A stretch of 64,000 bases of DNA, taken from an uncultured virus (IMG/VR IMGVR_UViG_3300023081_000010). Its lineage: Duplodnaviria; Heunggongvirae; Uroviricota; Caudoviricetes. The position numbers and the translations under genes are program-made. Under the pieces are notes generated by a model. It had not been told where the DNA came from, did no database searches, and saw only the letters and a list, made by a program, of their open reading frames with translations. The DNA is taken from IMG/VR virus record IMGVR_UViG_3300023081_000010; one strand, 5' to 3'. Shown one piece after another: positions 2,808-50,049 of this stretch; position 1 is the stretch's first letter, and the number at the start of each line of letters is the position of its first letter.

Positions 2808-5429
2808 ATGGCTGAAGTAACAGGACAACTGGGCGATCAAGAGATTCTGCTTAATAATGCCGCGACTGAAATTACGCTGCAAAAGATTTTATCGGCTTTA
2901 TCAGCGAAACAAGGCGGTATAGATCCAGCTACTGCGGCAGCAGTGACCGGTCTAGGCGCTGCTTCAATTGCTGCTACTAAATCAAATCAACAATTTGGTA
3001 AAACAACCAAAAGATCTGGTGCAGATGTAGCTAATTTAGGTTCCGCAGCTAGTAAAACTGCCAAGAATTTGAATGGCGGTTTTGCAGGCGCTATTACAAA
3101 AACCATTGGCGTATTAGGTGGTCTAGCCGACGGTGCTATCAATGTTGTTAAACGTATTTCTACTGTTAACAGCACCTTAGCAGGTTTAGATGGTTCGCTA
3201 GCCGGTGCCGGAACTGCACTAGATACAGTCGGAGCGCAAATCCCTGGTATTGGAAAAGGACTACAAGTAGTTGCTGCGGCATTTGGTCCTACACTTGCTT
3301 CATTAGATAAAACAAGAACAGCATTCCAAGAAGCTGCACAAGTTGGTGCTAACTTCGGCGGCAACATGAATGGAGTTGTCCAGGCTGCTGGATCTATGGG
3401 CTTACAAATGAGTGAGCTCACAGGAATAATGAAGGGCAACGGCGAAGCATTAATGTTCTTGGGCGGCAGCACAGATGCTGGTGCTAAACGATTACAGGAA
3501 TTTGGTAAAGAATTTAGAAAGACTTCTGCGTTTGAGGATCTAAACAGATTAGGTTATGGAACACAGCAGATCAACGAAGGTTTCTTAAAATACTCACAAC
3601 TACTTGCTAAAGGTGGTAGACTACAAGGACAAACAGATGCACAACTACGTGCAGGCACATACGAATACTTAAAGAACTTAGATGCTGTATCTAAGTTAAC
3701 AGGTAAAACCAAAGAAGCACTTCAAGCAGAACAAGACGCAAGAATGGCAGATGCTCAATATCGTACGATGTTGAGAAGCCTAGATGCTGATGGTCAGAAA
3801 CAGCTAGAACTGTTGATGCAGACCATTCCAAAACAGCACCAACAAGGTCTTAAAGAAATTCTAGCAACAGGTACTGCAACTTCTGAAGAAGGTATGAAGG
3901 CTATGGCTTTCCTACAGAAATCAGGAATGAGTGCTCAACAGTTGCATCAACAGATGTCAGCAACAGGAACACTTACCAAAGATCAAGTGTTTAAGTTTAA
4001 TGAAGTATATCAAAACGAAGCCAAAGCAGTTGCAGACAGTCCACTATTTAAAACACTAGGTAAGTTTGTTCCTGAATTTAATGATTTGGTTACAGGTGTT
4101 TATGATGTTGCTGAACGAGAAAAATCAATTGGTCAAATCTACGAAGAGCTTGAAACTAATCTTAAAACAATCAAAGATAATATCAAGTCAGGCACCGCTG
4201 GCACTGAATTTGTAGATGCAGCGACAGTAGAAGCAGTAAGAAACAAATTCAACGAAGCTGCTGCATTTATGACATCTGAGTTGAATAAGATTGATATTAC
4301 TCCAGTCAATGATGCATTTGATCTAGTAATGAAGGCTGCAAAAGAGTTTTCACTTCCTATGCAGCAAAAGGCAGGCGAATATGCTACTGAAATGGGACTA
4401 GCTATAGCTGCTATAGGTGGAGTAACTACAGCACTAGGCGCTTTAATGACTGCCTTAACTTTGGCAAAAAGCGGCCTAGGCGCATTTACAGGTTCGAATA
4501 GAGGAGGACCAGGCGGCAACGGTTCTTGGACCAACCAAAAGACACCATCAGGCGCAAAGCCTGGAATGATGGGCAAACTATCATCTTGGGGTGGAAAACT
4601 ATTAAGAGTTGCCGGAAAAGCAGCAGCACCAGTAGCAGTAGGTATGTCTTTATATGACGGATATTCGAGATACAGTGATGCTGATGAAAAACTAGCATCG
4701 GGTGAAATAACTCAAAATCAAGCTACTGTCGAAAAAACAAAAGCAGTAACAAGCACTACCGGCGGATTAACCGGTATGGCAACTGGCGCAATGGCAGGAG
4801 CCGCAATTGGTTCTGCTGTTCCAATTGTTGGAACAGCGATTGGCGGTCTCATAGGTGGTGCAATTGGTTGGTGGGCCGGCTCAAAAGCTGGTGATGCTGT
4901 AGGTGAAGTAATTGGAGAAAAACTTTCAGGTCCTGATACTATTAGAGATCTAGAAGCCAAAGCAGAGAAACTACAACAGGCAATTGCAGATAATAGTTTT
5001 TCTTCGGTTGGTTGGTCAGCAGAAGATGAAAAACAAGAACTAGCCCAAATACAACAACAGCTCATGGCTGCTAGACAACAGGCTTCTCAGCAAATGATTG
5101 CTGACGGAACAGTAACAGAACAAGAAGTACAGGATTTCCAAACCAAAGTAGCAGAAGTTAACGGCGGAGGAGGTTACAGCCAAGGTAATATAACCACTGC
5201 GTCCAATACGCTTCCAGACGCTGCCAAAACTGAAGAAGAATTGGCAACTGGTGTTCCAATGACAGAAGAAGCCCAAATGGCAGCAGCCACAAATGTAGAG
5301 AAAGATCCTATTCTAGAATTAAATAGTAGCATACAAGAATTAGTAGCTTTGGCAAGAATGAATAATAAACTACAACAGCAACATATTAATGTAACTGGCG
5401 GATTAAGTCAAGACGCATTTGTTGTTTAA
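2808..5429 (+). CDS. Tail tape measure protein
   Basis: 873 aa, Ala/Gly/Gln-rich helical composition, glycine-zipper hydrophobic segment (GAMAGAAIGSAVPIVGTAIGGLIGG), next to the chaperone-like pair. Confidence 0.75.
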   Translation: MAEVTGQLGDQEILLNNAATEITLQKILSALSAKQGGIDPATAAAVTGLGAASIAATKSNQQFGKTTKRSGADVANLGSAASKTAKNLNGGFAGAITKTIGVLGGLADGAINVVKRISTVNSTLAGLDGSLAGAGTALDTVGAQIPGIGKGLQVVAAAFGPTLASLDKTRTAFQEAAQVGANFGGNMNGVVQAAGSMGLQMSELTGIMKGNGEALMFLGGSTDAGAKRLQEFGKEFRKTSAFEDLNRLGYGTQQINEGFLKYSQLLAKGGRLQGQTDAQLRAGTYEYLKNLDAVSKLTGKTKEALQAEQDARMADAQYRTMLRSLDADGQKQLELLMQTIPKQHQQGLKEILATGTATSEEGMKAMAFLQKSGMSAQQLHQQMSATGTLTKDQVFKFNEVYQNEAKAVADSPLFKTLGKFVPEFNDLVTGVYDVAEREKSIGQIYEELETNLKTIKDNIKSGTAGTEFVDAATVEAVRNKFNEAAAFMTSELNKIDITPVNDAFDLVMKAAKEFSLPMQQKAGEYATEMGLAIAAIGGVTTALGALMTALTLAKSGLGAFTGSNRGGPGGNGSWTNQKTPSGAKPGMMGKLSSWGGKLLRVAGKAAAPVAVGMSLYDGYSRYSDADEKLASGEITQNQATVEKTKAVTSTTGGLTGMATGAMAGAAIGSAVPIVGTAIGGLIGGAIGWWAGSKAGDAVGEVIGEKLSGPDTIRDLEAKAEKLQQAIADNSFSSVGWSAEDEKQELAQIQQQLMAARQQASQQMIADGTVTEQEVQDFQTKVAEVNGGGGYSQGNITTASNTLPDAAKTEEELATGVPMTEEAQMAAATNVEKDPILELNSSIQELVALARMNNKLQQQHINVTGGLSQDAFVV

Positions 5430-5441
5430 TTAGGAAAAAGA

Positions 5442-7151
5442 ATGAGCTGGAAAAAATATTTTACACCTGTAAACATTGATAACAAGAGTGGTAGTTATAG
5501 CCCAATTAGTGGCGGCGGCCGCGCTGGTCCTGCTCGTGCTAACTACTCATCTTTCTTGCCCGATGTTTATGCAGGTGCGCCAAATAGAATTGAAAGATAT
5601 ATGCAGTATGATACCATGGATATGGATTCAGAAGTTAATGCTGCTCTTGATATTCTTGCTGAATTTTGTACAGGTAAAGACAAAGAAAATTCAACACCAT
5701 TTAATTTTAAATTTAGAAAACAACCTACAGGTGTTGAAACAAAATTATTAAAAGACGCATTACAAAAATGGTCTAAGCAACAACAGTTTGAAACTAGAAT
5801 TTTTAGAGTAGTAAGGAACACATTTAAATATGGCGATTGTTTTTTCATTCGTGATCCAGAAACTAAGAAATTGTTATATGTGGATCAAGCAAAAGTCTCC
5901 AAAATTATTGTTAACGAATCCGAAGGAAAGATTCCCGAGCAGTATGTTATAAAAGACATTAATTTTAATTTTAAAAATCTAGTTGCTACCACACCACACG
6001 GTACGTCAAACACTTCTCCAAGTGGAACCAGCTCATACACAACTGGAGGAGGGTTTGGTCGTGGCTTTGTAGGATCAGCAGCACAAACACCAGGCACACG
6101 TTTCCATAATGCACAAAATGAAATTACAGTAGACGCTGAACACGTGATGCACATTTCACTATCAGAAGGATTGGATAACAATTATCCTTTTGGTAATTCA
6201 CTATTAGAAAGTGTGTTCAAAGTTTACAAACAAAAAGAATTACTTGAAGATGCGATTATTATCTATCGTATTCAACGTGCTCCAGAAAGAAGAATTTTTT
6301 ATGTAGACGTTGGTAATATGCCTTCACACATGGCAATGAGCTTTGTTGAAAAAGTTAAGAATGAAATCCAACAAAGACGTATTCCGTCACAAACAGGCGG
6401 TAGCACAAATGTTATTGATGCAAGTTATAATCCACTATCAACCAACGAAGATTACTTCTTTCCACAAACAGCAGAAGGACGTGGATCTAAAGTTGAAACA
6501 TTACCAGGTGGTACTAACCTAGGTGAAATTACAGATTTAAAATACTTTACTAATAAATTGTTCCGTGCATTGAGAATTCCGGCTTCTTATTTGCCAACTT
6601 CAATTGACGAACAACCTAACACAGTAGCAGACGGTAAAGTAGGAACAGCATATATTCAAGAGCTTCGTTTTAACAAATATTGTGAAAGACTACAAAGCAG
6701 TATTGTAGAAGCATTTGATGTAGAATTTAAATTTTGGTTAAGCAATCAAGGTTATAACATTGATCCTACACTGTTTGATTTGAAATTCCAAACACCACAA
6801 AACTTTGCTGCATACAGACAAGCTGAGCTTGATACTACAAGAGCAAATCTATTTGGTACATTACAACAAGTTCCACACTTATCAAAACGTTTTGCTATGA
6901 AACGTTACTTAGGTTTAACTGAAGAAGAAATCAAAGAAAATGAAAGACTGTGGAAAGAAGAAAATTCACTAATGCTTCAACCACCGGCTGATGCTGGAGG
7001 AGAGCTAAGAACTGCTGGTATTACACCAGCGGGTATGGAAGCAGAAGCAGGAGCGCAAACTGATGCTGAAGCAACACCAGATCAAGCGGCTGCTGCTGAA
7101 CCTGCAGGCGGAGAGGGAGCTGCGGCAGGTAGTGAAACTGTCTCGCAGTAA
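5442..7151 (+). CDS. gp20: Portal protein (T4 gp20-like)
   Basis: LLEDAIIIYRIQRAPERRIFYVDVGNMP, EDYFFP..EGRGSKVETLPGG and ELRFNKY motifs. Confidence 0.97.
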   Translation: MSWKKYFTPVNIDNKSGSYSPISGGGRAGPARANYSSFLPDVYAGAPNRIERYMQYDTMDMDSEVNAALDILAEFCTGKDKENSTPFNFKFRKQPTGVETKLLKDALQKWSKQQQFETRIFRVVRNTFKYGDCFFIRDPETKKLLYVDQAKVSKIIVNESEGKIPEQYVIKDINFNFKNLVATTPHGTSNTSPSGTSSYTTGGGFGRGFVGSAAQTPGTRFHNAQNEITVDAEHVMHISLSEGLDNNYPFGNSLLESVFKVYKQKELLEDAIIIYRIQRAPERRIFYVDVGNMPSHMAMSFVEKVKNEIQQRRIPSQTGGSTNVIDASYNPLSTNEDYFFPQTAEGRGSKVETLPGGTNLGEITDLKYFTNKLFRALRIPASYLPTSIDEQPNTVADGKVGTAYIQELRFNKYCERLQSSIVEAFDVEFKFWLSNQGYNIDPTLFDLKFQTPQNFAAYRQAELDTTRANLFGTLQQVPHLSKRFAMKRYLGLTEEEIKENERLWKEENSLMLQPPADAGGELRTAGITPAGMEAEAGAQTDAEATPDQAAAAEPAGGEGAAAGSETVSQ

Positions 7152-8993: not shown

Positions 8994-9620
8994 TTGAAAA
9001 CTAGCTTAACAGAACATCTGAGCTTCGATCAGGCTAAAATCGTACTTGAGCGTGATGAAGGCGAAGGTAAGTCATTACACTTGAGTGGCATCTGTATTCA
9101 GGGTGACATTCGTAATGCTAACCAACGTGTTTATTCTTCTAAGGAAATTGATAGGGCTGTCAAGACGCTCAACGAACAGATTTCTGGGGGGTATTCAGTG
9201 CTAGGCGAAGTTGATCATCCTCAAGATTTAAAAATAAACCTCGACCGTGTATCACACATGATTACTAAAATGTGGATGGACGGTCCTAACGGCTACGGAA
9301 AACTTAAAATGTTGCCTACACCTATGGGACAACTGATTGAAACTATGTTGACATCAGGAGTTAAATTAGGTGTAAGCAGTAGAGGTTCAGGAGAGGTAGA
9401 CCCGAGCGGTAACGTTCAAGGATTTGAAATTGTTACAGTGGACATTGTAGCCCAACCAAGTGCTCCGGGAGCTTATCCTACACCAGTTTATGAACACCTA
9501 ATGAATACAAATGGTGGATTTCAGGCATATAAAGTTGCACAAGAAGTAAAAGGCGACGCACAGGCACAACGATATATAGCAGAGAGCTTGAAGAAAATAA
9601 TTCAAGGTCTAAAATCTTAA
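8994..9620 (+). CDS. gp21: Prohead core protease (T4 gp21-like)
   Basis: RNANQRVY, LGEVDHP, LDRVSH, LGVSSRGSG, VDIVAQPSAP motifs; TTG start. Confidence 0.95.
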   Translation: MKTSLTEHLSFDQAKIVLERDEGEGKSLHLSGICIQGDIRNANQRVYSSKEIDRAVKTLNEQISGGYSVLGEVDHPQDLKINLDRVSHMITKMWMDGPNGYGKLKMLPTPMGQLIETMLTSGVKLGVSSRGSGEVDPSGNVQGFEIVTVDIVAQPSAPGAYPTPVYEHLMNTNGGFQAYKVAQEVKGDAQAQRYIAESLKKIIQGLKS

Positions 9621-9633: not shown

Positions 9634-10725
9634 ATGTTAGATTTCGTAAAACAGTTATTTGAAAATAACGTGATTTCCGAAGATGTCAAGTCGGAGATTG
9701 AGACCGCTTGGGAAACTGCTATTCAAGAAAACCGCGACACAGTCTCTGCACAATTACGTGAAGAGTTCGCTCAAAAATATGAGCATGATAAGTCTGCAAT
9801 GGCAGAAGCAGTAGAAAAGATGTTAGCTGATAGAATTCAAGCTGAACTATCTGAGTTTGCTGAAGATCGTCAAGGACTTATTGAAGCTAGAGCCAAGTAC
9901 GCTAAGAAAATGAAAGATGATTCCAAAGCAATGGAATCATTTGTTCTTAACAACTTGAAAAAAGAACTAGCTGAACTACATGAAGATCGTAAGAGTGTAG
10001 CAAATAACGTTGCTAAATTAGAATCTTTCATAGTTAACGCATTAGCAAAAGAAATTGCCGAATTCCACACTGACAAAAAAGATCTAGCTGAAACTAAAGT
10101 GAAGTTAATTCGCGATAGCAAAGCAAAATTTGAATCTGTCAAGAAAGAATTTATTGCAAAAGCTTCTGATGCAGTCAAAGAAACAGTCTCTAAAGGACTA
10201 CGTTCTGAGATGTCACAACTTAAAGAAGATATTGATGCAGCACGTAAAAATGATTTTGGTCGCAGAATTTTTGAAAGTTTTTCAAGTGAATACGCGGCTA
10301 GTTATCTAAATGAAAAATCTGAGACAGCAAAACTTCTTAAAGTTGTAAAACAGAAAGAAGATGCAGTTAAAGAAGCTGAAGCAAAAATTGCAGAAGCAGA
10401 AAAACTAGTTGAAAGTCGTGAATCAGAGATTGCTCGTATGAAAGATAGCGCAGCTAGAAAAGAAGTGATGAATGAACTTTTATCACCTTTAAGTACAGAC
10501 AAGCGCGAAGTTATGAGTGAACTACTAGAATCTGTTCAGACTAACAAATTACACGCTACTTTTGACAAGTACATTGGCGCCGTGATGGATGGCAATGTAC
10601 CAGCGAAGAAGGCGCTTACTGAAGGCAAAGAAGTTACAGGCGATAAAGCACAGGCACAAGAAAGCAGTGGAGAAAAAACTGCTGAGATTTTTGATATCCG
10701 CAGACTTGCGGGACTTAAAGTTTAA
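9634..10725 (+). CDS. gp22: Prohead scaffolding protein (T4 gp22-like)
   Basis: Coiled-coil 363-aa protein between protease and capsid genes; strong RBS AAGGAG; C-terminal IRRLAGL. Confidence 0.85.
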   Translation: MLDFVKQLFENNVISEDVKSEIETAWETAIQENRDTVSAQLREEFAQKYEHDKSAMAEAVEKMLADRIQAELSEFAEDRQGLIEARAKYAKKMKDDSKAMESFVLNNLKKELAELHEDRKSVANNVAKLESFIVNALAKEIAEFHTDKKDLAETKVKLIRDSKAKFESVKKEFIAKASDAVKETVSKGLRSEMSQLKEDIDAARKNDFGRRIFESFSSEYAASYLNEKSETAKLLKVVKQKEDAVKEAEAKIAEAEKLVESRESEIARMKDSAARKEVMNELLSPLSTDKREVMSELLESVQTNKLHATFDKYIGAVMDGNVPAKKALTEGKEVTGDKAQAQESSGEKTAEIFDIRRLAGLKV

Positions 10726-10738
10726 GGAGAACATACAA

Positions 10739-11929
10739 ATGTCACAACTATTAGAGTCACGCTGGTCGGAAACCAAAGAGGCATTATTAGAAGGCCTTCA
10801 AGGTAACAAGCGTTCAGTTATGGCTGCCACTCTTGAGAACACTCGCAAGTATCTTTCAGAGTCCGCTACAGCTGGTGCTACTTCCGCCGGTAACGTTGCA
10901 ACCCTAAATCGCGTCATCCTTCCAGTGATCAGACGTGTTATGCCAACAGTCATTGCTAATGAACTAGTTGGTGTACAACCAATGACTGGACCAGTTGGTC
11001 AAATCCATACATTAAGAGTTCGTTACGCTGATGCTGTAACAGGTTCTGGTGTAACTGGAACAACAGCTGGTGAAGAGGCATTAAGCCCATTCAAGATTGC
11101 TGAAGGCTATTCTGCTACTACAGCAGGGTCTACAATTTCATCTAACAGAGCTGCTGCTACAGCAACTTTAGAAGGTGAAGCTGGTACAAGACTAAGCATT
11201 CAAATCTTGAAACAAACAGTCGAAGCGAAGACACGTAAATTGTCAGCTCGCTGGACTTTTGAAGCAGCTCAAGACGCTCAAGCTCAACAGGGCATTGACG
11301 TTGAAGCTGAGATCATGGCAGCTCTTGCACAAGAGATTACTGCTGAGATCGACCAGGAGATCATCGGATCTCTTAGCTCACTAGCAGGTACTGCTGCATT
11401 GACATACGATCAAGCTGCTGTATCAGGTACTGCTACATTCGTTGGTGACGAACACGCTGCATTGGCTGTTCAAATCAACCGTGTTGCAAACTTGATTGCA
11501 CAACGTACACGTCGTGGCGCAGGTAACTGGGCAGTGGTTTCACCAACAGTGTTAACACTTCTTCAGTCTGCTACAACTTCTGCGTTCGCAAGAACAACAG
11601 AAGGTACTTTTGAAGCTCCGACAAACACTAAGTTTGTAGGTACTTTAAACAGTGCAATGCGTGTGTATGTAAACGGCTATGCTACATCTGACGATGTACT
11701 AGTTGGTTACAAAGGTTCTTCAGAATCTGACGCTGCTGCGTTCTACTGCCCATACATTCCATTAATGTCAAGCGGTGTTGTACTTGATCCAGGTACATTC
11801 GAACCAGTTGTTAGCTTCATGACAAGATATGGCTACGTTGAATTAAACAACACAGCTTCATCTCTTGGTAATGCTGCTGACTACTTAGGCAAAGTTGCTG
11901 TAACTTCAGCTAACTTACGTTTTGCTTAA
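10739..11929 (+). CDS. gp23: Major capsid protein (T4 gp23-like); true start ATG 10739 (396 aa)
   Basis: RRVMPTVIANELVGVQPMTGPVGQI, AKTRKLSARWTFEAAQD, AAFYCPYIPL, FMTRYG; RBS AAGGAG before 10739. Confidence 0.97.
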   Translation: MSQLLESRWSETKEALLEGLQGNKRSVMAATLENTRKYLSESATAGATSAGNVATLNRVILPVIRRVMPTVIANELVGVQPMTGPVGQIHTLRVRYADAVTGSGVTGTTAGEEALSPFKIAEGYSATTAGSTISSNRAAATATLEGEAGTRLSIQILKQTVEAKTRKLSARWTFEAAQDAQAQQGIDVEAEIMAALAQEITAEIDQEIIGSLSSLAGTAALTYDQAAVSGTATFVGDEHAALAVQINRVANLIAQRTRRGAGNWAVVSPTVLTLLQSATTSAFARTTEGTFEAPTNTKFVGTLNSAMRVYVNGYATSDDVLVGYKGSSESDAAAFYCPYIPLMSSGVVLDPGTFEPVVSFMTRYGYVELNNTASSLGNAADYLGKVAVTSANLRFA

Positions 11930-11950
11930 TTTACACTTTTAAGTGTTACG

Positions 11951-11981
11951 AAAAAGGGCGGTTTTATACCGCCCTTTTTTT
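11951..11981. terminator. Rho-independent terminator (bidirectional type) after the capsid gene
   Basis: AAAAAGGGCGGT-TTTAT-ACCGCCCTTTTTTT. Confidence 0.9.
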
Positions 11982-11986
11982 ATGGC

Positions 11987-12016
11987 TTGACAATCTGCCA
12001 AAAAGAGTGTTAAATA
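11987..12016 (+). promoter_or_regulatory. Promoter with TTGACA (11987-11992) plus TAAATA (12011-12016), 5 nt before ATG 12022
   Basis: Perfect -35 hexamer; the -10 region matches the late motif better than TATAAT. Confidence 0.5.
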
Positions 12017-12021
12017 TTGTT

Positions 12022-12294
12022 ATGGAAGATATTACAAGTCACGAAGATTTCAATAAACTTAGAGATCAATTCGATAAGTGGAAGAAGCGTTTTCCTATGT
12101 TCTCACATGATGTAAGAACAATCCAAACAGCAGTAGAAGGCCATATGAAAAACTATATGGAGCATCTAATACGCTATAAACAAACAAAAAGCACTCACGC
12201 TATTGCAAAAGCACAAGACGAAATAGACAAAATCAATGCACTAATGAATACTATAAGTAAGGTAGAACTTATGGCTTTGTTGAGCAAAAGATAA
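12022..12294 (+). CDS. Hypothetical helical protein (start probably ATG 12022)
   Basis: In-frame ATG 5 nt after TAAATA; 90 aa. Confidence 0.7.
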   Translation: MEDITSHEDFNKLRDQFDKWKKRFPMFSHDVRTIQTAVEGHMKNYMEHLIRYKQTKSTHAIAKAQDEIDKINALMNTISKVELMALLSKR

Positions 12295-12297
12295 ATA
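12292..12297 (+). promoter_or_regulatory. Late promoter TAAATA for the tail-fibre operon
   Basis: Overlaps the preceding stop codon; followed by a structured leader and RBS AGGAG. Confidence 0.6.
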
Positions 12298-12302
12298 CTT
12301 GT

Positions 12303-12382
12303 GTCAGATAGTGTGCCACCAAGGTGGTGGACTTATGGGGAAACCAAACCTCGTAGCGGCTAGAACCCGCATCGGACTTCTA
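12303..12382 (+). ncRNA. Candidate structured cis-regulatory RNA (four-way junction with possible pseudoknot)
   Basis: P1 12303-12309/12371-12377, P2 12310-12333, P3 12334-12355, P4 12356-12370 abut with no linker bases; P4 loop TAGAA is complementary to TTCTA at 12378-12382. Confidence 0.65.
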
Positions 12383-12399
12383 AACATAGGAGAAAACAA

Positions 12400-12795
12400 A
12401 TGGGAAGACCACTTAGAAAAGATGTAAATGGTGTAGATGTAATCAAATCACCAGTTTCAGATACAGGTATCACTGTTAATTTCCACGATGGCACATCAAA
12501 TAGAACAGACGGTGTTATTATTAAACAACGTGGAGCAACTTCATTCACAGTAGTAAGAGTTGGCGACATTGGAACAACTGCAAATTATCTAACTTGTAAG
12601 TTGAAAAATGGTACACCAGCTGCACAAGGTGAAATGCAGTTACAAGGTTCTACAACAGGTAACCTTGACGCTGATCTAGTAAACATTGCTAAAATTACTA
12701 AGCGTGTTGCTACTGACTTTTCTGGTAACAAGTATACTTGGTATCTAGAAAACGATTCATCAGCAGACTACATCGTATTAACAGCAATTTCTTAA
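12400..12795 (+). CDS. Putative virion structural protein
   Basis: Strong RBS; beta-rich composition; first gene of the fibre operon. Confidence 0.65.
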   Translation: MGRPLRKDVNGVDVIKSPVSDTGITVNFHDGTSNRTDGVIIKQRGATSFTVVRVGDIGTTANYLTCKLKNGTPAAQGEMQLQGSTTGNLDADLVNIAKITKRVATDFSGNKYTWYLENDSSADYIVLTAIS

Positions 12796-12808
12796 TAGGT
12801 ACTGAATA

Positions 12809-13774
12809 ATGGCACAGTTCGTACAAACTAACGGCGATTACACAATCAAGACCGGTGAAGGGAATAAAATTTTATTCGACACAGGTCCGGGTATTGGTGA
12901 AGTAAAGGTTACAGGTAACCTTGTCGTTGAAGGTGACACACTAACTGTATCAGCAGAAAACCTAAATGTAAACGATAACATCATAGTTTTAAACTATGGC
13001 GAAACAGGTGCAGGAGTAACACTAGGTTACTCAGGTATTCAAATTGATAGAGGAACCGAAACTCCTGCAACTATCGTTTATAACGAAAGCGATGATACTT
13101 TTAACTTTGCATTTGGTTCACCTGAAACTACATTTAACTATGCCAACAGTGCAATTCGTGTTAGAAAAGTTTTAACTAATTCTGAAACAGATGATGGTGA
13201 CTTAACACTTATTGGTACAGGTACAGGTGTAGTAAAAGTTTTAGGAACATTAAATTATGAATTGCAAATCACTGATGATGACGACATACCTAATAAAAAG
13301 TATGTAGACGATTCAATTAGAGATAATCCGACCTTCCAAATTATTGATGATAACACAAGAGTTATTATTACAGATAAAGATGTGTCAGGAAGTTTAGCAT
13401 ATTTGACTGACAATACTGGTTACAGTTCTTTCGGTGAAAGTGCAGTATCTGTATTAGTCGACGGAGTATTAAACTCGCAATTTTATTCTAACAGAACTAC
13501 AATACAAAGTTTAGAGTTTTCGGGAAACGAAATTACTAATAACGATACAAACGCAAATATTTTTGTTCGTACTCAAGGTACTGGTAAATTACAAGTAAAC
13601 TACGGTATTGAACTAGAAAAAATTGCAGTTACTCCAGCGTATGTAGTAGATAGTACTATTGTTTATAGCAACGAACCTGCTGTCGGAAAAACAGGTATGT
13701 TCTTTACTAACTCAACAGATACTGGAGAATTAATAAGTAAGAATAGAGCATTGCTCTTTAGTATGCTTTTTTAA
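12809..13774 (+). CDS. Tail fibre/baseplate-associated structural protein
   Basis: VTGNLVVEG, LNVNDNIIVLN, GIQIDRG, IPNKKYVDD fibre-type motifs; hydrophobic C-terminal helix. Confidence 0.7.
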   Translation: MAQFVQTNGDYTIKTGEGNKILFDTGPGIGEVKVTGNLVVEGDTLTVSAENLNVNDNIIVLNYGETGAGVTLGYSGIQIDRGTETPATIVYNESDDTFNFAFGSPETTFNYANSAIRVRKVLTNSETDDGDLTLIGTGTGVVKVLGTLNYELQITDDDDIPNKKYVDDSIRDNPTFQIIDDNTRVIITDKDVSGSLAYLTDNTGYSSFGESAVSVLVDGVLNSQFYSNRTTIQSLEFSGNEITNNDTNANIFVRTQGTGKLQVNYGIELEKIAVTPAYVVDSTIVYSNEPAVGKTGMFFTNSTDTGELISKNRALLFSMLF

Positions 13775-16097: not shown

Positions 16098-16213
16098 TTC
16101 TCCTTTTGGCATAAATACAATTGTCAACGTAGTCCATGCGTTGATCTATTACTGTGGTCAACTCGCAATGTAAGGTAGTTGGAGGGACAGGATCCCCGTG
16201 TAAAGGAGAGCAA
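16098..16213 (+). promoter_or_regulatory. Late promoter (TAAATA 16112-16117) with structured leader and an upstream anti-SD sequence
   Basis: 9-bp hairpin 16123-16145; second stem 16152-16190; TTCTCCTTT (16098-16106) is complementary to RBS AAAGGAGAG (16202-16210). Confidence 0.55.
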
Positions 16214-17998: not shown

Positions 17999-20900
17999 AT
18001 GGCAGAGTTTAAGATAAGCAGAATTAGGTATACCTGGAGAAGCAACTGGGCTACCTCTACATCATATAACAAAGATGATGTTGTATTATACGCAGGTAGT
18101 TCTTGGATTTGTATTAGACAGCATACTTCAAGTAATTTCAATGCAGATTTTACATTTGTTCCACCAGGTGACACTGTATCACAACCAGCATGGAAAAAGC
18201 ACACCGACGGTGTTTATTATAGAGGAAGTTGGGCAACAGCTACCGATTACTTCCCAGGCGAAGTAGTATCCTATGGTGGTAACGTTTGGCTTGTCGGAAC
18301 TGCACATACTAGCGGAACTTATTTTGACGATAACCTTTCTGACTGGACAGTTATTGCTCAGGCAGTAGGGTGGAAAGGTGATTGGGCTACATCAACAAGA
18401 TACGGTGTTGGCGATCAAGTTAGATACAATGGTATTGTTTATAGATGTATTACAGGTCATACATCAGCTGCTACAACAGCAGAAGGTTTAGAATTAGATC
18501 AAGTAAAATGGGGTACTGCATACACAAATATTCACTATGCAGGCGAATGGGCTTCAGATACAAAATATAAAGCCAACGATATCGTAGAATACGGCGGCAC
18601 TTTAATGAGAGTGTTGATTGGACACGTCTCTGGATCGTCAATTACAGATTCAAACTTTACAGTTTATATCGCTGGACATAAACTTAAAGGAACATGGGAT
18701 TCAACAACTTACTATGCAATCGGTGATGTTGTACAGCACGGCGGATATGTTTATAGAGCGTCGGCAAATAGCTATGGTAGAACACCAGGTGACTCAATTT
18801 ATCAACCAGATGGTGGTACTTACTGGGCTATTATTGAAAAAGGATTTAATTTAAGAGGCCCTTGGGCAGCATCTGGTAATTATAAAACAGGTGATGTTGT
18901 GCAACGAGGCGGCAATCTTTATATTGCGTTACTTGATTCAACAGATGACGGTTCGAGTTTAGATTATTTAGATGCAGGTAACTGGGAAGTTGTTGTAGAA
19001 AGCCAGGCATGGAAAGGTTCTTGGGTACAAGGTACAGTTTATGCTGTAAATGATGTTATTATTTACAGAGGTACTGCATATTCATGTAACTATGAACACG
19101 AAGCTACAGCCGAAAATTTCCCTGGAGACAACGGGTCAGGATTTGTATATTGGGATGTATTACTCTTAGGTGATGATCAAATTGGTATGATCAACCCTGG
19201 AGACTTGTTAACTTATGGTTTAACAAGAACATTAGCCGGTGACCAAAGTACACTTGGTGCAGCAAACGTGCCAATTGGTAACCAAGACGAATTATTAACA
19301 GTACAATCAGAACAAACACTTGGATATGATAAATTTGGTTTATCGTCTAGATTTTTCTATGTAGATCCTTATAATGGTGTTGACGATAGAGACAATCCAA
19401 ATGCAGGTATTGATCCATTTAAACCTTTAAAAACTATTAGATATGCACTAGAACGTGCAAATGATGAATACACTGGAACTACTACAGTTAAATTAAGCAC
19501 TGGTGATTATACAGAAATTCTTCCACTTATTATTCCAGCAAAAACTTCATTGTTAGGTGACGAATTACGTTCAACTACTGTTAGACCAAATGAAGCTAAT
19601 ACTGCTTTATCAGGTGATACAGTATATAGATTTGCAGCATTAAATCATTTGAAGAACGTCGCCAGAACAATTATTCTAAACAATTCAGTTACAAGAACAG
19701 CAGGCAACGAAGAAGAACAAGTGTATGTTATCGACTCTGTATTTTCAGGAGAATACACAGCAGCAGTTGTTGGCGAAGGTGGAGAAATTATTCAGCCTGG
19801 ACAACCAATTTATGATGATGTTCCGATCTATGGCGATGATGCAACAGCAAATCAAATAGATAATAGAGTAACAGACTTTATTGATTACGTTAACTTCCAT
19901 ATTAATTCTGTAGGAACAGATGTAGACGTAACAGGAACTAATGATCTAAGTAGCGATAGTGCTAGAATTAATGGTGCTAGAGCAATTGGTGCAAATGCTA
20001 AGTTCTTGGCACACGAAGTTAACGCATACATGAAGGTAAATTATCCAGATTATACTGGATATCCAGAAGCACTTTATGTTGAAGACGTACAACGTTATGT
20101 AGATGCTTTTGTTTATGATTTAAGATATACAGGAAATTATAGAACTATTCTTGAATCAAGATACTATGCTAATCAAATTAATGGATCTCAAAGAGAAGAT
20201 ATGTTCTATTGCAGAGATGCAACAGGCGTTAGAAATTTAACAGTTAAAAATTTAACAGGTACACTAAATCCACCTAACGTATTTGATTTATATCAAAGAC
20301 CAACAGGGCCTGCATATTGTTCACTTGATCCAGGCTGGGGACCAGCTGATGAAAAATGTTGGATTGCAACACGCTCACCATATATTCAAAACGTAACAAC
20401 GTTTGGCGATAACTGTACAGGTCAAAAAATTGACGGTTCATTACACAACGGTGGTTACAAGTCAATGGTGTCCAACGACTTTACACAGGTTATCAGTGAC
20501 GGTATTGGTGCCCATGTTTTAAATAATGGTAGAGCAGAACTTGTTTCTGTGTTTACATATTACTCACAGGTTGGATATCTAGCAGAAACTGGTGGAACAA
20601 TTCGTGCAACAAACGGTAACAACTCTTATGGTTATATTGGTGCATTAGCTGATGGTAATGATCCTTCAGAAACACCACTTACTGCAACAGTTAACGGAAG
20701 AACAGAACACGCTAAAATTGCTTCAGCATTTGCAGGTGAAGTAAATGATGAAATTTTATTATTCGAATATACAAACTGTGGACAAAATTATACAACTGCT
20801 GAGTATACTGTAATTGGTTCTGGTACAAACGCTGAAGTCATTCAAGAAGAATTTAGAGATGATTCATTATTCGAAGCAAGAATTGTAACAGGCGCAAGTT

Positions 20901-23599
20901 CAGGAGCAGCTGGCGGTGGCGGTTATATTCAAGTTGGTAACCAAGCACAGTCTGGCGATGAAACATCAATAACTCTTGCAACTAACGATGATAATGAAGA
21001 AGCATATTTGTTAGGTTGTAGAATTATTATTACATCAGGTGACGGTACAGGACAGTACGGAAAAGTTGCTTCTTACAATACAACAACTAAAGTATTAAAT
21101 GTTGTAAAAGAATCAACAGGTGAACCAGGATGGGATCATGTAATTCCAGGTTATCCTATTAAAACTAGTTTAACCACTAGTGCTAGATACTTGATTGAAC
21201 CAAGACTTACATTTTCAGCACCAGAATTTTCACAGGAAAATATTACACTTGACGCTGGTACACAATGGTCTTCAATAGCATATAACGAAACTACATTTAC
21301 ATACACAAGTATTACAGGAACAGGTGATCAAAATGGTTCAACAATTGATGTTTTACCTGCAACTGCATCTTGGGATGTTAAGAGAAGCGGAAAATACTAT
21401 ACTGTAACCATTAGAGGAAGAGGCGCAGGTTATACAACAGGCGATACAATTACTATTCCTGGTACAGATCTAGGAGGTGTTTCACCTGATAACGATCTTG
21501 TAATTACTGTATTATCAACAAGTGACGATAGTATCAACGAAATTGTAACATTTGAATATGCAGGAACTGCTACAAGCGGAATATTCTGTGTAGTGTCGGC
21601 AATTGGTAATACCGCTAACATATCTAAAGACGGTACTACTTGGACAACAAATAATTTACCTTCAACAGGTAATTGGATTAGTATAACAGGCGGTCACGCA
21701 TTAAGCGGAAACTATGTACTTGCTACTGTAAAATATGGAAGTAATAATCTTGCATATACATTAGACGGAAATACATGGGGAATCAAAGCATTACCAGCAA
21801 GTGCTAATTGGGAATCAATCACTAGTGGCGGCGGAGTTTATGTTGCTGTAGCAAGTGATGGAAACAATGCTTGTTACAGTACAGACGGTATTAATTATAC
21901 CGCTGCAAACATTCCAGCATTTGGTGATTCTACAATTAACCAATGGAAATCAGTTGCTTATGGTAAAGGAAAATTTGTTGCAGTTGCTCAAAGTAATAAC
22001 TTTGCAGTTTCAGGTGCATATGATTCAGTAACAGATACATTTACATGGGAAACTCCTGTGATCATGGATGTTATTGCAGACAGTTCACAGAAAGACTGGA
22101 TTAAGATCGCATATGGTAACAATAGATTTGTTGCTATTTCAGAATTTGGTGATATTGCTTACAGCTTTGATGGAGATTTTTGGTATCCAGGCACAATGCC
22201 TACACCGGATGGATCAACTAGAATGACATGGCGTGATCTAAAATTTGGTGGCGGTATGTTTATAGCTACTATGGATACAGGCGGCGTTGATATTTCAGGA
22301 GATGATCCAACAGCAGGACCTGTAAATTATATCTATCAATCATATGATGGAATTAATTGGGAACTTAAATCTGTTGTTGACAACGGCTACTGGGGACCAG
22401 TTGCATTTGGTAATCCAGATGTTACAACAGACGATGGCGGCGATAACAGAAAAGGTCAATGGATATTAATTAGTAGAGATATCACATTTACACACAAACG
22501 TTTCTACACAGGTGCTAGAGCATTAGGTAGAGTTGTAGTTGGTGGTGGTAGAATTAGTGAAGTAAGATTGTGGGAGCCAGGTAGTGGTTATGCTGCACCT
22601 CCGACATTTACAATTGTTGATCCTAACAACACAGGTGATTTAGAATTAGATTTAAATAGAATGGGTGATAGAGTGTTAGCACAACCTAGCTGGATAAACA
22701 GAGGAAATGCTTACAAAACAAGTACCACCCAAGTTACTGTAACAGGTGATGGTTTTGCTGATATTGTTGCTGTTGGTAAATTCTTAACAATTAGTGACAT
22801 TAATACAGTTATTGGTCCAGGTGCCCAGTTAAGATTAAGTGGTAATCCTGAATTATACACAGTTGTGTTAATTGAAAAAGAAAGTGAAGAGTCCAACGGA
22901 ACGTTTACACTTAGACTTAGAGTCACACCTGAGTTAAAAATTGAGGACGATCCAAGTAACTTCCACGGTAACGCAGTAGAAATTAGATTAAGATATTCAA
23001 ACTGTAGAATTACAGGACACGATTTCTTAGATGTTGGAACTGGAAACTTCTTACAAAGTAACTATCCTGAATTATATTCAGGAAACTATGTAAGTTATCC
23101 AGAAAACGAAGTTATTGAACAGAACGGTGGTAGAGTGTTCTATACATCAACTGACCAATCAGGAAACTTTAGAGTTGGTGAGTTGTTTGCTGTTGAACAG
23201 GCCACTGGTATTGTTACAATTAGTGCAGACTTCTTCGATCTAAACGGACTGACAGAACTTGCACTAGGTGGTATTAGAGTTGGTGGTACTGGAACTGTTA
23301 TTAGAGAATTCTCGACAGACCCACTATTCACAGCAGACTCAAATAATATTGTTCCTACACAGAGAGCAATTAAAGCATACCTACAAAATAGATTGAACGT
23401 TGGTGGTGCTGACTTGCTTACAGCCAGCTTTATTGCTGGTACTGTTAAAGTAGGACCAGGAGAAATTGGAAACTCAGCAGGACTTAGAGTTACAATTCCT
23501 GTTAAAACAAAATTTGTTGGTGACGAAGCAGGTGTCCAAGGATCTATATTGGCACAAGCAATGTTCCACAGATCCTTCGATAAAAACAATTCGAGGTAA
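17999..23599 (+). CDS. Giant multidomain tail fibre/spike protein (1866 aa)
   Basis: N-terminal W..AT.Y..GD.V.Y.G..Y repeats (CBM5/12-like), pectin-lyase-like beta-helix region (SPYIQNVT, SNDFTQ), S.DG..W propeller-like repeats; paralogue of 23632. Confidence 0.8.
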   Translation: MAEFKISRIRYTWRSNWATSTSYNKDDVVLYAGSSWICIRQHTSSNFNADFTFVPPGDTVSQPAWKKHTDGVYYRGSWATATDYFPGEVVSYGGNVWLVGTAHTSGTYFDDNLSDWTVIAQAVGWKGDWATSTRYGVGDQVRYNGIVYRCITGHTSAATTAEGLELDQVKWGTAYTNIHYAGEWASDTKYKANDIVEYGGTLMRVLIGHVSGSSITDSNFTVYIAGHKLKGTWDSTTYYAIGDVVQHGGYVYRASANSYGRTPGDSIYQPDGGTYWAIIEKGFNLRGPWAASGNYKTGDVVQRGGNLYIALLDSTDDGSSLDYLDAGNWEVVVESQAWKGSWVQGTVYAVNDVIIYRGTAYSCNYEHEATAENFPGDNGSGFVYWDVLLLGDDQIGMINPGDLLTYGLTRTLAGDQSTLGAANVPIGNQDELLTVQSEQTLGYDKFGLSSRFFYVDPYNGVDDRDNPNAGIDPFKPLKTIRYALERANDEYTGTTTVKLSTGDYTEILPLIIPAKTSLLGDELRSTTVRPNEANTALSGDTVYRFAALNHLKNVARTIILNNSVTRTAGNEEEQVYVIDSVFSGEYTAAVVGEGGEIIQPGQPIYDDVPIYGDDATANQIDNRVTDFIDYVNFHINSVGTDVDVTGTNDLSSDSARINGARAIGANAKFLAHEVNAYMKVNYPDYTGYPEALYVEDVQRYVDAFVYDLRYTGNYRTILESRYYANQINGSQREDMFYCRDATGVRNLTVKNLTGTLNPPNVFDLYQRPTGPAYCSLDPGWGPADEKCWIATRSPYIQNVTTFGDNCTGQKIDGSLHNGGYKSMVSNDFTQVISDGIGAHVLNNGRAELVSVFTYYSQVGYLAETGGTIRATNGNNSYGYIGALADGNDPSETPLTATVNGRTEHAKIASAFAGEVNDEILLFEYTNCGQNYTTAEYTVIGSGTNAEVIQEEFRDDSLFEARIVTGASSGAAGGGGYIQVGNQAQSGDETSITLATNDDNEEAYLLGCRIIITSGDGTGQYGKVASYNTTTKVLNVVKESTGEPGWDHVIPGYPIKTSLTTSARYLIEPRLTFSAPEFSQENITLDAGTQWSSIAYNETTFTYTSITGTGDQNGSTIDVLPATASWDVKRSGKYYTVTIRGRGAGYTTGDTITIPGTDLGGVSPDNDLVITVLSTSDDSINEIVTFEYAGTATSGIFCVVSAIGNTANISKDGTTWTTNNLPSTGNWISITGGHALSGNYVLATVKYGSNNLAYTLDGNTWGIKALPASANWESITSGGGVYVAVASDGNNACYSTDGINYTAANIPAFGDSTINQWKSVAYGKGKFVAVAQSNNFAVSGAYDSVTDTFTWETPVIMDVIADSSQKDWIKIAYGNNRFVAISEFGDIAYSFDGDFWYPGTMPTPDGSTRMTWRDLKFGGGMFIATMDTGGVDISGDDPTAGPVNYIYQSYDGINWELKSVVDNGYWGPVAFGNPDVTTDDGGDNRKGQWILISRDITFTHKRFYTGARALGRVVVGGGRISEVRLWEPGSGYAAPPTFTIVDPNNTGDLELDLNRMGDRVLAQPSWINRGNAYKTSTTQVTVTGDGFADIVAVGKFLTISDINTVIGPGAQLRLSGNPELYTVVLIEKESEESNGTFTLRLRVTPELKIEDDPSNFHGNAVEIRLRYSNCRITGHDFLDVGTGNFLQSNYPELYSGNYVSYPENEVIEQNGGRVFYTSTDQSGNFRVGELFAVEQATGIVTISADFFDLNGLTELALGGIRVGGTGTVIREFSTDPLFTADSNNIVPTQRAIKAYLQNRLNVGGADLLTASFIAGTVKVGPGEIGNSAGLRVTIPVKTKFVGDEAGVQGSILAQAMFHRSFDKNNSR

Positions 23600-23605
23600 T
23601 TAAGG

Positions 23606-23611
23606 TAAATA
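23606..23611 (+). promoter_or_regulatory. Late promoter TAAATA
   Basis: In the 32-bp gap before RBS GGAG and ATG 23632. Confidence 0.55.
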
Positions 23612-23631
23612 AGTACAACGGAGTTAATTAA

Positions 23632-26600
23632 ATGGCAGAATTTAAACTTGGTAGAATTAGATTTGTATGGAAAGGGGACTGGGCAGGTTCCACGACATAC
23701 TATAAAGATGACGTTGTCCGATACGGCGGTAAAACATTTATATGTGCTGTAGGACATACTTCAGACCCAGATTTTTATGTAAATTTCAACGATGTTCCTA
23801 GTAAATGGAACACAATGACTGATGGTCAATCATGGAAAGGTGATTGGTCAACAGCAACTTATTATGTATTAAACGATGTTGTCAAATACGGTGGCAACTT
23901 ATACATCTGTAACACTGCCCACACTTCTGCCGCTACTACTTCCGATGGGTTAGAGTTAGATACTGCCAAGTGGGATGTATATGCTGAAGGATTTGATTGG
24001 AAAGGCGCTTGGGTCGCAGCGACTAGATATAAACTTAATGATTTAATTAAGTATGGTGGTGTAACATATGTTTGTAACACTGGACACACATCAGCTGCAA
24101 CAAATGCACTAGGTCTTGAAAATGATCAAGCCAAGTGGGATTATTTTAACCAAGGCATCGAGTACAAAGGCTCATGGGTAGCCGCAACAAGATATAAAAT
24201 TAACGATATTGTTAAGTATGGTGCAAATCTTTATATTTGTACAACATACCACACATCAGATGTTACATCGTTTACCAACGACACTGCTAACTGGGCTTCC
24301 TTTGTTGAAGGTTTTGAATTTTCCAACGATTGGAACAACAGTGCAAACTATAAAATTGGTGATGTTGTTAAGTACGGTGGTAACAGTTACGTTGCAAAAA
24401 CACACAACACTGCAAAAACTCCACCAGACAACGGTTCAGACTGGGGATTATTCAGCGAAGGATTTGATTTCCAAAGTGCTTGGGTCAACACAACAGACTA
24501 TAAAGTTGGTCAGGTTGTAAGAAACAACGGTTACAGCTATGTTGCAATTGCTGATTCACCAAGTAATGACTTTACAGTAACAGCATCTACTAACGGAACA
24601 AATCTTTTCACAACTGCTGACACAACTGGAATGACTGTTGGTCAGTCAGTACAATTTAGTGGAACAACATTTGGTAATGTTAATTCAGATGCACTTTACT
24701 TTGTTAAAACTGTAGACAGCGGTACACAATTTACAATTTCAACAGTACACGGTGGAACAGTATTTGAACCTGACACAGCTACAGGTTCGATGACAGCAAG
24801 AGTTGCTGCTCATCCTACAGAACCTAACTACTGGGGAAGACTAAACGAAGGATTTAGTTGGCAAGGTGACTGGACTGACGATACAGATTATGAAATTGGC
24901 GATGTTGTTAAATTTGGTGCAAACGCATATGTTTGTGTATCAAGACACAGATCAGAAGGCGATGACGGTTCAACAATTGGAGCCGAAGGTGGCGGAGCAG
25001 ATAACTCTCGTCCAGATCAAGACTTAACAGGTACTTATTGGAACCAGTTAATTACAGGTTCAGAAACAGATATTCTAACTACTAAAGGTGACCTTGTTTA
25101 CTATGGCGGTGCTGGTGTAACTAGATTACCAATCGGTGTAGAAGGTCAAGTACTTATGGCAGGTGCTGAGTATCCTCAATGGAGATCATTAGGTTCCTCA
25201 GATCACGTTTACTTTGTTGCACCACACGGTACAAACAATCCGTACCCAGTATTTGGTGGAACATTAGATAAACCTTGGAGCAGCATTAGATATGCTTGTC
25301 AACAAGTTGAACACGGACCAAGACTTCCTAATGCAACAAAACTTCTTGAATTAAACAGAACATTCATTCAGAAAGAAGTAACTGAATGGATTAATTATCA
25401 AATTGAATACAACACAGTTACAGTACCAGATGCTACAAGTATTTGGTATAACTTTACATATGACGACAACAAATGTTACAGAGACATTGGTTGGATTGTC
25501 GATGCTGTTATCTTTGACTTAAGACACGGCGGTAACGTTAAAGTTAGAGGTGCTGCTAATGCATATGTCGGCGGTCTTGAAGAAAGTGAAAACGCAGGTG
25601 TTAAAGAATACACAAGACTTTCTACAGAATCTGCAAACGATATTGCTGCAAACAACTATATGTTAACAGTTGTAAGCAATGTATTAGCACAAACAGATCC
25701 TACAGTTAACTATCAAACAACAAACGGTGACCTTTCAACTGCTGTTGTTGCACAATGGAAAGATAGTGATATTATTGCTGAATCAGGAGTTGATGCTGTT
25801 GTATCTAGTTTAGTTACAATCATTAACAACGCACTTGAAGATGGCGACACAACTAGAATTCCTGAGCGTGTACAGCCAAACAACATTATTAAAGTTAAAA
25901 CTGGACGTTATAGAGAAGTACTTCCGATCTTAGTACCAGAACATACTTGTGTAATCGGTGATGAAATTCGTGCAACTAATGCAGGTCCTGCTGTTGGCAC
26001 AACTCACCATACAGATACATATTACACTTTAAACACTTATCAGCATTTGAAAGGTGTTATTAAAGATGTAATCACAGGTGCTACTGTAACAGCTACAACA
26101 GGAAATACAGAAGTACAAGATATTGCAGTTCCTTTTGCAGACACAGTTGAATCTGCAGAAGTAGATAAATTAATTGAAACAATGATTCATAACATCGACT
26201 TCCGTGTTGGAGGTTTAGATCTTATGACACGTACTGATCCAACAGGATATAATTCATCATATCTAGTTGGTTATGGCGATGCTAGACATTTAATCGAAGA
26301 AAACAAAGCGTTCTTACAAGAAGAAATTACTCTTTGGATTGGTGTTAACTATCCTAATATCAAGTACAGCAAAACAAAATGTAAACAAGACATTGGTTAC
26401 ATTGTAGATGCTATTGCATATGATTTAACATATGGCGGTTATAAAGCAACTGTTGATGCTGCTACAGCATACTATGATGGTATTGCTGGCTCACTTGCTA
26501 TTGATAGTACAGAAAAAACAGCAACAATTGCTGCATACGGAGAGATGAAAACTCAACTTTCAGCAATTGCAGGCAATTCAGTATTAACTAAATTAGGAAA

Positions 26601-34597: not shown

Positions 34598-34601
34598 CAT
34601 T

Positions 34602-35102
34602 ATGAAAAAAGCACTTATCGGTTATCAAGGCTGGGTATCCGAAATTAGAAACCCCGGCGAAGAGTATGAGATTTACAACGGCCCAGATGCGAATATGCAA
34701 TGGGTTGATGCACCTGATGAAATCACACTAGATTGGACATTAGAATGGTCTCCGTCTAGACAAGAGATGATTTGGGTTGAAAGAGATATGCCTTATTCAC
34801 CAAATGCTAACGAAGTAGCAAGAAAAGTTGCATACGGTGAAGTTGGCGCTCAATTAGGTATGATTTATGACGAGCTAAAAGCAACAGGAACCATTTCGAT
34901 TAATGGTCCTTGGGCTACACACATTACAAATGTAAAAGCTCTAATTGATAAACCACTACCACCAGAACCACCAATGACACTTGAAGAATTACAAGCGAAA
35001 GCTGCTGTCGAAGAACCTAGTGTAGATAAAGCAAATATGCCAGGTACTCCGGAAATTCCAGCATGGAGACGCTACAGAGGTTGGTGGGGCAACCAACAGT
35101 AA
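34602..35102 (+). CDS. Putative tail fibre assembly chaperone/adaptor
   Basis: ARKVAY..V..QL..IYD.....W...I..VK motif typical of phage fibre chaperones; TATAAATA-N5-ATG start. Confidence 0.55.
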   Translation: MKKALIGYQGWVSEIRNPGEEYEIYNGPDANMQWVDAPDEITLDWTLEWSPSRQEMIWVERDMPYSPNANEVARKVAYGEVGAQLGMIYDELKATGTISINGPWATHITNVKALIDKPLPPEPPMTLEELQAKAAVEEPSVDKANMPGTPEIPAWRRYRGWWGNQQ

Positions 35103-50036: not shown

Positions 50037-50041
50037 ATGCA

Positions 50042-50049
50042 TATTTATA
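50042..50049 (-). promoter_or_regulatory. Canonical T4-type late promoter TATAAATA for the right arm of the enzyme cluster
   Basis: TATAAATA-TGCAT-ATG on the minus strand; a divergent TAAATA lies at 50088-50093 on +. Confidence 0.7.

Follow-up and report, generated by a model that had tools for sequence, protein, structure and literature searches.

A freshwater-2 RNA leader behind a probable late promoter of an uncultured T4-like phage, with a hairpin loop complementary to the start of the downstream gene

The window analysed here, a stretch of 64,000 nucleotides from an uncultured virus, represents the part of a T4-like phage genome that carries the structural genes. It encodes a T4-type portal protein (5442-7151), a prohead protease (8994-9620), a gp23-type major capsid protein (10589-11929) and two giant tail-fibre genes across 17999-31179. 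The two tail-fibre reading frames (17999-23599, 1866 amino acids, and 23632-31179, 2515 amino acids) contain repeated CBM_5_12 carbohydrate-binding modules. As listed, the reading frame 9634-10725 overlaps the gp23-like frame 10589-11929 by 137 bases; the Pfam Gp23 match begins only at residue 103, so that the true start of the capsid protein may lie further downstream. A folded leader is placed between a 95-codon reading frame (12007-12294) and a 131-codon reading frame (12400-12795), and has the following features:

12291 to 12297, + strand: T4-type late-promoter-like box ATAAATA, with the predicted transcript start at about 12303.
12310 to 12333, + strand: hairpin P2, which is hairpin 1 of freshwater-2; in the Rfam register its stem is 12315-12320 with 12326-12331 (model positions 1-17).
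12334 to 12355, + strand: hairpin P3, stem 12334-12340 with 12349-12355, loop AAACCAAA at 12341-12348.
12344 to 12346, + strand: P3-loop CCA, which is proposed to pair with UGG 12401-12403.
12356 to 12370, + strand: hairpin P4, stem GCGG/CCGC, with the near-invariant loop CUAGAAC at 12360-12366.
12371 to 12392, + strand: subclade-specific tail AUCGGACUUCUAAACAUAGGAG, which can form an anti-Shine-Dalgarno (anti-SD) hairpin and contains the 3' strand of the outer stem P1 (12371-12377) and TTCTA.
12388 to 12402, + strand: Shine-Dalgarno (SD) sequence AGGAG, A-rich spacer and start codon, in conserved columns (Rfam model positions of about 70-84, consensus AAGGAGAAAAcAAAUG).
12400 to 12795, + strand: downstream gene for a 131-residue protein beginning MGRPL, which belongs to no Pfam or PHROG family.

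The folded leader is a member of a catalogued Rfam family, and the RNA family itself is already known. In a cmscan search, positions 12315-12402 on the + strand matched freshwater-2 (RF02980), a family of type Cis-reg, with 70.2 bits; the gathering score of this family is 49.9. The match has an E-value of 1.2e-08 on the 64-kb window, runs untruncated over model positions 1-84 of 84, and is the sole Rfam match within the window. The whole virus record, which has 114,291 bases and is rated 32% complete, holds one copy of freshwater-2. The RF02980 model has three hairpins in a row, equivalent to P2, P3 and P4, and, 3' of these, the SD sequence and the AUG; neither P1 nor a pseudoknot is part of it. 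According to the consensus alignment, the window has the UUAUG.../...CGUA stem ends, the loop UAGAAC and the three hairpins in series, and the position of the element is that of a cis-regulator, with AGGAG (12388-12392) and ATG (12400) directly 3' of the hairpins. The model stops at the AUG and so cannot contain a full pairing between a loop and the start codon.

An earlier sequence-only reading of this DNA had described the leader as an RNA that could not be assigned to a known family. The match at 70.2 bits contradicts this and removes the novelty of the element, while the element itself stands. The strings on which that reading was built are all present in the window: TAAATA ending at 12297, the strands of P2, P3 and P4, TTCTA at 12378-12382, AGGAG at 12388-12392 and ATG at 12400. 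The freshwater-2 motif is said to originate from a screen that yielded 224 motifs. Our literature search on freshwater-2 and RF02980 found no paper about the RNA, and the word 'freshwater' is absent from the main text of the paper on that screen (PMC5737381).

T4 late promoters have the consensus TATAAATA, a fixed short spacing to the transcript start and no -35 element. In the window, the box GATAAATA at 12290-12297 lies upstream of the leader. Four other TAAATA boxes are followed by an ATG exactly 5 nt downstream (34591-34604 and 58290-58303, and on the - strand 60401-60388 and 50047-50034), and because of this spacing those four late messages would be leaderless. The listed reading frame 49458-50042 begins at an earlier ATG that overlaps its TAAATA box. 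There are 11 copies of the word ATAAATA in the window, fewer than the 25.7 ± 5.0 that shuffled sequence would contain, and by our own reading of the positions 10 of the 11 sites lie just upstream of a reading-frame start on the same strand. It seems that this word is avoided in the window except as a promoter. Given the four sites with the same offset and the rarity of ATAAATA, it is reasonable to place the transcript start of the leader by the 5-nt spacing from TAAATA, as the sequence-only reading had done. A second late-promoter box (16112-16153) is immediately followed by a hairpin, GTCAACG-tagtccatg-CGTTGAT, before the reading frame at 16154, which has a GTG start; the P3-P4 core is not found there.

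Parts of 11900-13100 are carried by 19 RNA-library runs labelled salt marsh metagenome, which indicates relatives of the window's phage in a saline habitat. In contigs from four of the 19 runs, coverage within 11900-13100 was confined to 12354-13100; assembled RNA contigs cannot mark a 5' end, and the upstream gap may reflect divergent relatives.

Relatives of the leader were collected in several ways. An 18-base core pattern gave at least 119 viral contigs, a protein search with the downstream product gave 80 loci, and two degenerate RNA patterns gave a further 121 and 119 stretches. The comparison set consists of 273 distinct leaders, each taken from TAAATA to 93 nt inside the reading frame. 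Two sets were used for covariation. The first (150 leaders) comprised the window and 149 of 161 representatives, out of 233 distinct leaders, and the second (149 leaders) comprised the window, 54 leaders whose reading frame opens with AUGGC and 94 of 200 that open with AUGGG. Of the 312 pattern matches accompanied by a ribosome site and an ATG, 295 have TAAATA upstream of the motif; all the compared leaders were pre-selected for this box. Among 50,697 phage records, no match was found to the 131-residue protein by tblastn or to the leader by blastn, and hence no cultured relative. We also observed a diverged branch of the motif (L324, L329, L357, L385 and others), in which CUCUCGGAG...CUCCGGGUAGCCUAGAACGCUA replaces the UUAUGC/GCGUA stem ends. 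It lies upstream of MAKLKI- or MANKLK-type proteins; its P4 loop is retained, as is its complement to the start codon.

Folding calculations point to the + strand as the structured one. The stretch 12292-12402 folds at -30.4 kcal/mol (z = -2.29; 7 of 200 shuffles were equally good), while the same stretch on the - strand is no better than its shuffles (z = -0.36). A longer outer helix in this fold, CUUGUGU/ACAUAGG, was discarded because its 5' strand would precede the predicted transcript start. In the predicted transcript 12303-12410, the pair probabilities of P2, P3 and P4 are 0.80-0.98, with P2 alone at 0.80-0.95.

Comparison of the relatives gives strong support to P3 and P4. Cells of P3 are paired in 99.6% of cases among the 150 leaders and 96.6% among the 149, and those of P4 in 92.7% and 98.7%, respectively, whereas controls slid out of register are 24-50% paired. 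Cells changed on both sides number 272 and 410, against 93 and 112 after shuffling, and none of 500 shuffles was as high. In the set of 149 leaders, such double changes are found at six of the seven P3 pairs and all four P4 pairs, and the pairs of P4 occur as GC, CG, AU and UA among the relatives, with all four covarying. A U.G wobble in P3 is kept in 147 of 150 sequences, and its conservation identifies the + strand as the folded strand. P2 differs from the other two in that its sequence is variable. It can form in 233 of the 273 leaders, with a mean minimum free energy (MFE) of -5.8 kcal/mol against -2.1 for shuffled sequences, and is absent for want of room in the other 40. The three inner hairpins proposed in the sequence-only reading are therefore upheld at the coordinates given above, with the support of the Rfam model and, for P3 and P4, of strong covariation in homologous leaders, while the other two elements of that reading, P1 and the pairing of the P4 loop with TTCTA, do not covary. 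The 5' strand of P3 (12334-12340, UAUGGGG; UUAUGC in most relatives) itself holds an AUG in a context like that of the real start, AUGGG. As a further partner for the P4 loop we considered the 5' end of the transcript (GUCUA, UCUAG or GUUC), where 123 of 273 leaders have a complementary 4-mer against 87 expected. This excess is weak, and in the clades carrying GUUC this sequence is merely the 5' strand of P2, so the candidate was rejected.

The sequence-only reading had closed the three hairpins into a perfect four-way junction by the outer stem P1 and had joined the P4 loop UAGAA to UUCUA just before the SD sequence. All pairs needed for this proposed fold are available in the window: GTCAGAT (12303-12309) and ATCGGAC (12371-12377) form six pairs around one A.G mismatch, as described, and the junction scores -27.3 kcal/mol with P1 against -23.9 without it. 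Of the 273 leaders, 87 carry in their tail a Watson-Crick 4-mer complement to the P4 loop, where shuffles predict 27.6, and as an alternative conformer the junction would release the SD sequence from the anti-SD strand. Against it, the pair probabilities of P1 are only 0.23-0.32 in the transcript 12303-12410, and the MFE fold, at -30.1 kcal/mol, omits P1 and has the anti-SD hairpin in place of both P1 and the P4-loop pseudoknot. Among the 150 leaders 53.8% of P1 cells are paired, with no covariation. The 3' strand of P1 (AUYGGRC) is present in only 88 of 273 leaders, and the tail that the junction needs is missing from the remaining 185. In leaders with the tail, changes from AUC to AUA are uncompensated, yielding G.A or A.A, and the 5' ends of many are unable to pair beyond GUC. 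Duplexes between the 5' end and the tail of the same leader score -2.59, against -2.47 ± 0.09 when partners are permuted (18 of 200 permutations were as good); when all 147 long-tailed leaders are taken, the cognate pairs are worse than the permuted ones. The late promoter at 16112, which has no freshwater-2 motif, is also followed by GTC. Since P1 has only 53.8% of its cells paired, does not covary and is mostly absent, and since the same GTC follows a promoter that lacks the motif, we conclude that the four-way junction is not the architecture of the family; P2, one of its arms, is itself dispensable in 40 of 273 leaders.

The tail has another partner. In the MFE fold, CUUCUA (12377-12382) pairs with UAGGAG (12387-12392) at probabilities of 0.69-0.83. 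A hairpin of the form CUUCU-N3-6-AGGAG is possible in 78 of the 88 tailed leaders and in 6 of 155 tailless ones; in those 78, the same UUCU would act as an anti-SD strand. The P4 loop and the tail never vary together, and their pairing is limited to one subclade; in a sister group with CUACUU, both the P4-loop pairing and the anti-SD pairing are broken or weakened. The P4-loop pseudoknot as originally drawn is thus not borne out, since it competes for the same TTCTA with a more stable hairpin, is confined to one subclade and shows no covariation. TTCTA is better read as an anti-SD strand that belongs to the window's subclade only. Docking of TTCTA on the P4 loop, which resembles an SD sequence, is a possible alternative and would give a conformer with the SD sequence free. 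We regard the closed junction together with its P4-loop pairing as a very improbable functional fold. What is kept from the sequence-only reading is a cis-acting folded leader on the + strand that starts at or near the predicted start site of a late promoter; its lack of a family, its four-way junction and its P4-loop pseudoknot are not.

A different long-range pairing was suggested by the loop of P3, which contains a near-invariant CC(C)A. This loop was compared with 90 mRNA positions in search of complementary 4-mers. For the 4-mer that starts at the U of the AUG, 192 of 273 leaders show such a match, 132 of them by Watson-Crick pairs alone; of the other 89 positions, the adjacent one has 46 leaders and all the rest have 33 or fewer. 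The loop also follows the second codon: reading frames that open with AUGGC mostly go with the loop GCCA, and those with AUGGG go with CCCA. Among leaders in which the loop could be anchored on CCR, the base facing position +5 in 171 AUGGG leaders is C in 128, A in 33, U in 9 and G in 1, and in 50 AUGGC leaders it is G in 32, A in 12, C in 5 and U in 1; a further 46 AUGGG and 6 AUGGC leaders have no CCR anchor and fall outside this count. The base opposite +5 is non-pairing in 42 of the 171 AUGGG leaders and 18 of the 50 AUGGC leaders, and another nine AUGGG leaders have U, which would make a G.U wobble. The window is among those with a shorter match, having only three pairs, CCA (12344-12346) with UGG (12401-12403), and A12343 opposite G12404.

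The pairing of loop and start was also examined in a MAFFT alignment (A3). It has 22 cells changed on both sides; shuffling gives 7.8 ± 2.0, and none of 500 shuffles reached the observed value. Paired cells make up 81.8%, and sliding the strands by one column lowers this share to 63.4% and 42.4%. In some subgroups the loop in A3 is off by one column, so that the figures from this alignment for P3, P4 and the pseudoknot are conservative; the anchor-based count at +5 was added for this reason. The association between loop type and start type has a Fisher p of about 1e-24, a value that ignores relatedness. On a tree built with the trait columns masked, the start type changes 13 times and the loop type 14 times. 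A conservative test on supported branches leaves only four independent pairs, with 2.4 changes in the same direction, none in opposite directions and 1.6 ties, a number with which p = 0.05 is unreachable. Greedy edge-disjoint contrasts over the whole tree (n = 13) give eight co-switches, none opposite and five uncompensated. Only one pair of the putative pseudoknot varies, namely the covarying pair between +5 and the loop, and the helix is not extended to +6. Complementarity between the P3 loop and the start codon thus emerged from the comparison of leaders as a feature of the whole family, with one covarying base pair.

The leader and the gene that follows it are inseparable in evolution. All 312 motif hits with a parsable SD sequence and ATG lie upstream of reading frames starting M[GA][RK]..., 233 of which start MGRPL; about 240 of the loci in this count came from the RNA pattern alone. 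A hidden Markov model built on the family of the window's protein picks up 155 of 217 AUGGG reading frames and 45 of 56 AUGGC reading frames, many of which are truncated by the flank that was taken. Tandem paralogues, each with its own TAAATA box and leader, were found in L171 (leaders at 1732-1804 and 2918-3003), where the two MGRPL genes encode 372 and 131 amino acids, and in L254/L255, which lie on one contig about 1.1 kb apart. In L172 and L173 a second MGRPL paralogue comes after the first and is preceded by no leader, just by an SD sequence. These observations show that freshwater-2 is invariably tied to one protein family, the MGRPL proteins.

For the family of the 131-residue protein, neither Pfam nor PHROGs yielded a match that passed the threshold, and no RNA-binding family was among the matches; a match to Ribosomal_L27 stayed below threshold (E = 0.036-0.056, in two of five members). 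A profile search of the PDB gave no match (best E = 1.7), Foldseek found no PDB structure at E ≤ 0.001, and the ESM Atlas returned only unnamed clusters with scores up to 0.85. The AlphaFold2 model has a mean pLDDT of 87.2 and matches only uncharacterised phage proteins, two of them from Agrobacterium phage Atu_ph07. Its N-terminal half weakly resembles a small barrel of the SH3/Tudor type (best Z 5.3). Our count of its residues puts the charge of the protein close to neutral.

How could such a leader act? The freshwater-2 leader very probably regulates the gene that it directly precedes, and to this extent we agree with the sequence-only reading, which had proposed a riboswitch-like, protein-binding or autoregulatory RNA for this gene. 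The late message would start about 5 nt past a T4-type late promoter, and the leader would act in cis on translation initiation. Throughout the family, the apical loop of P3, [C/G]CCA, could pair with UGG[G/C], which spans the last two bases of the AUG and the two that follow, and the short pseudoknot so formed would conceal the start codon. A second masking, limited to the window's subclade, may be provided by the anti-SD strand CUUCUA folded onto UAGGAG. We lean slightly towards translational control through the pairing with the start codon, as the position and the covariation of the loop suggest. A helix of three or four pairs cannot by itself keep a ribosome away. Since the sequences of the helix ends and of the P4 loop are also conserved, we infer a trans-acting factor. 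The conserved P3-P4 core (UUAUG.../...CGUAG and the loop CUAGAAC) would be the putative site at which this factor stabilises or releases the masked state. To the whole proposal, in which freshwater-2 is the 5' leader of a late message and serves as a translational operator with a putative trans-acting factor at the P3-P4 core, we would give an even chance.

Two other readings of the leader have to be weighed against this operator. A metabolite riboswitch would use the P3-P4 core and the pseudoknot of loop and start as a small aptamer, in which a bound ligand would stabilise the pseudoknot and thereby switch translation off (or on). Small pseudoknot riboswitches do exist, such as preQ1, SAM-II and guanidine-III, and the core of freshwater-2 is likewise small, conserved in sequence, putatively pseudoknotted and next to the ribosome site. 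Moreover, the variable segment between the core and the SD sequence, including the anti-SD hairpin of one subclade, resembles an expression platform. However, the RNA is bound to a single protein family of the virion module that has no metabolic link, its conserved bases are chiefly in helix ends and hairpin loops and not in a multi-helix junction, P2 is missing altogether in 40 of 273 leaders, and there is no candidate ligand. Within 12200-12500, no Rfam riboswitch family matched at E ≤ 1. We consider a riboswitch improbable.

The leader might instead be a constitutive 5' element that does not switch, either shielding the late message from decay that depends on the 5' end, or serving as a standby site or enhancer for very high translation. 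That the structure begins a few bases from the predicted 5' end would fit this reading, as would an SD sequence and spacer that are near-optimal and almost invariant, and the late promoter at 16112 also has an immediate hairpin (GTCAACG...CGTTGA). On the other hand, a stabiliser needs neither the near-invariant loop CUAGAAC nor invariant helix ends, and a constitutive element leaves unexplained why the loop tracks the second codon and why an anti-SD hairpin is present. On balance, such an element is rather unlikely.

If freshwater-2 is a translational operator, what could be its trans-acting factor? Our preferred candidate, with low confidence, is the product of the gene itself, so that a virion protein would be under autogenous control of its dosage; a metabolite, which we consider improbable, or another phage protein might take this role instead. 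The near-neutral charge of the MGRPL protein, its lack of a match to an RNA-binding family and the weakness of its fold match speak against it as the factor. Spelled out in full, the scheme would be a so far undescribed autogenous circuit of T4-like giant phages: surplus MGRPL protein that is not assembled would bind the P3-P4 core by way of a conserved small barrel at its N-terminus, which has the motif I-I-x-Q-[KR]-G, and lock the P3 loop on its own start codon. Each paralogue would in this way dose itself in virion assembly, and some clades would add the anti-SD strand, for which the SD-like P4 loop is another possible partner, as a second layer. This detailed scheme is less likely still than the autogenous factor as such.

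The copy in the window is structurally no different from RF02980, of which it is a member. What the present analysis adds to freshwater-2 is its phage and late-promoter context, the protein family downstream, the putative pairing of a loop with the start codon, and the anti-SD hairpin of a subclade. The window and about 270 leaders place the family in uncultured T4-like phages, some of them giant, behind predicted late promoters. If both the pairing with the start codon and the autogenous factor hold true, freshwater-2 would be a new class of translational operator for structural genes of phages.

Pseudoknots at the start site are used by ribosomal-protein translational operators of E. coli, namely rpsO/S15, which acts by 'entrapment', and the alpha operon/S4. 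The proposed action of freshwater-2 would resemble theirs in that a hairpin loop pairs at the initiation codon, the SD sequence stays single-stranded and a short pseudoknot needs a bound protein. Freshwater-2 is unlike these operators in that it is unrelated in sequence and family, its predicted pseudoknot has only 3-4 bp, it precedes a late gene of a phage and its binding protein is putative. Autogenous repressors are also known in phages, as in the gp32 and gp43 operators of T4, the hairpins bound by coat proteins of RNA phages, and the scaffolding protein of P22. With these freshwater-2 would share a structured operator at the ribosome site and, as we propose, a phage protein that limits its own synthesis, and the P22 scaffolding protein is a precedent for a virion-assembly protein as a regulator. 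It differs from them in shape, which is that of two abutting hairpins with a predicted pairing of loop and AUG.
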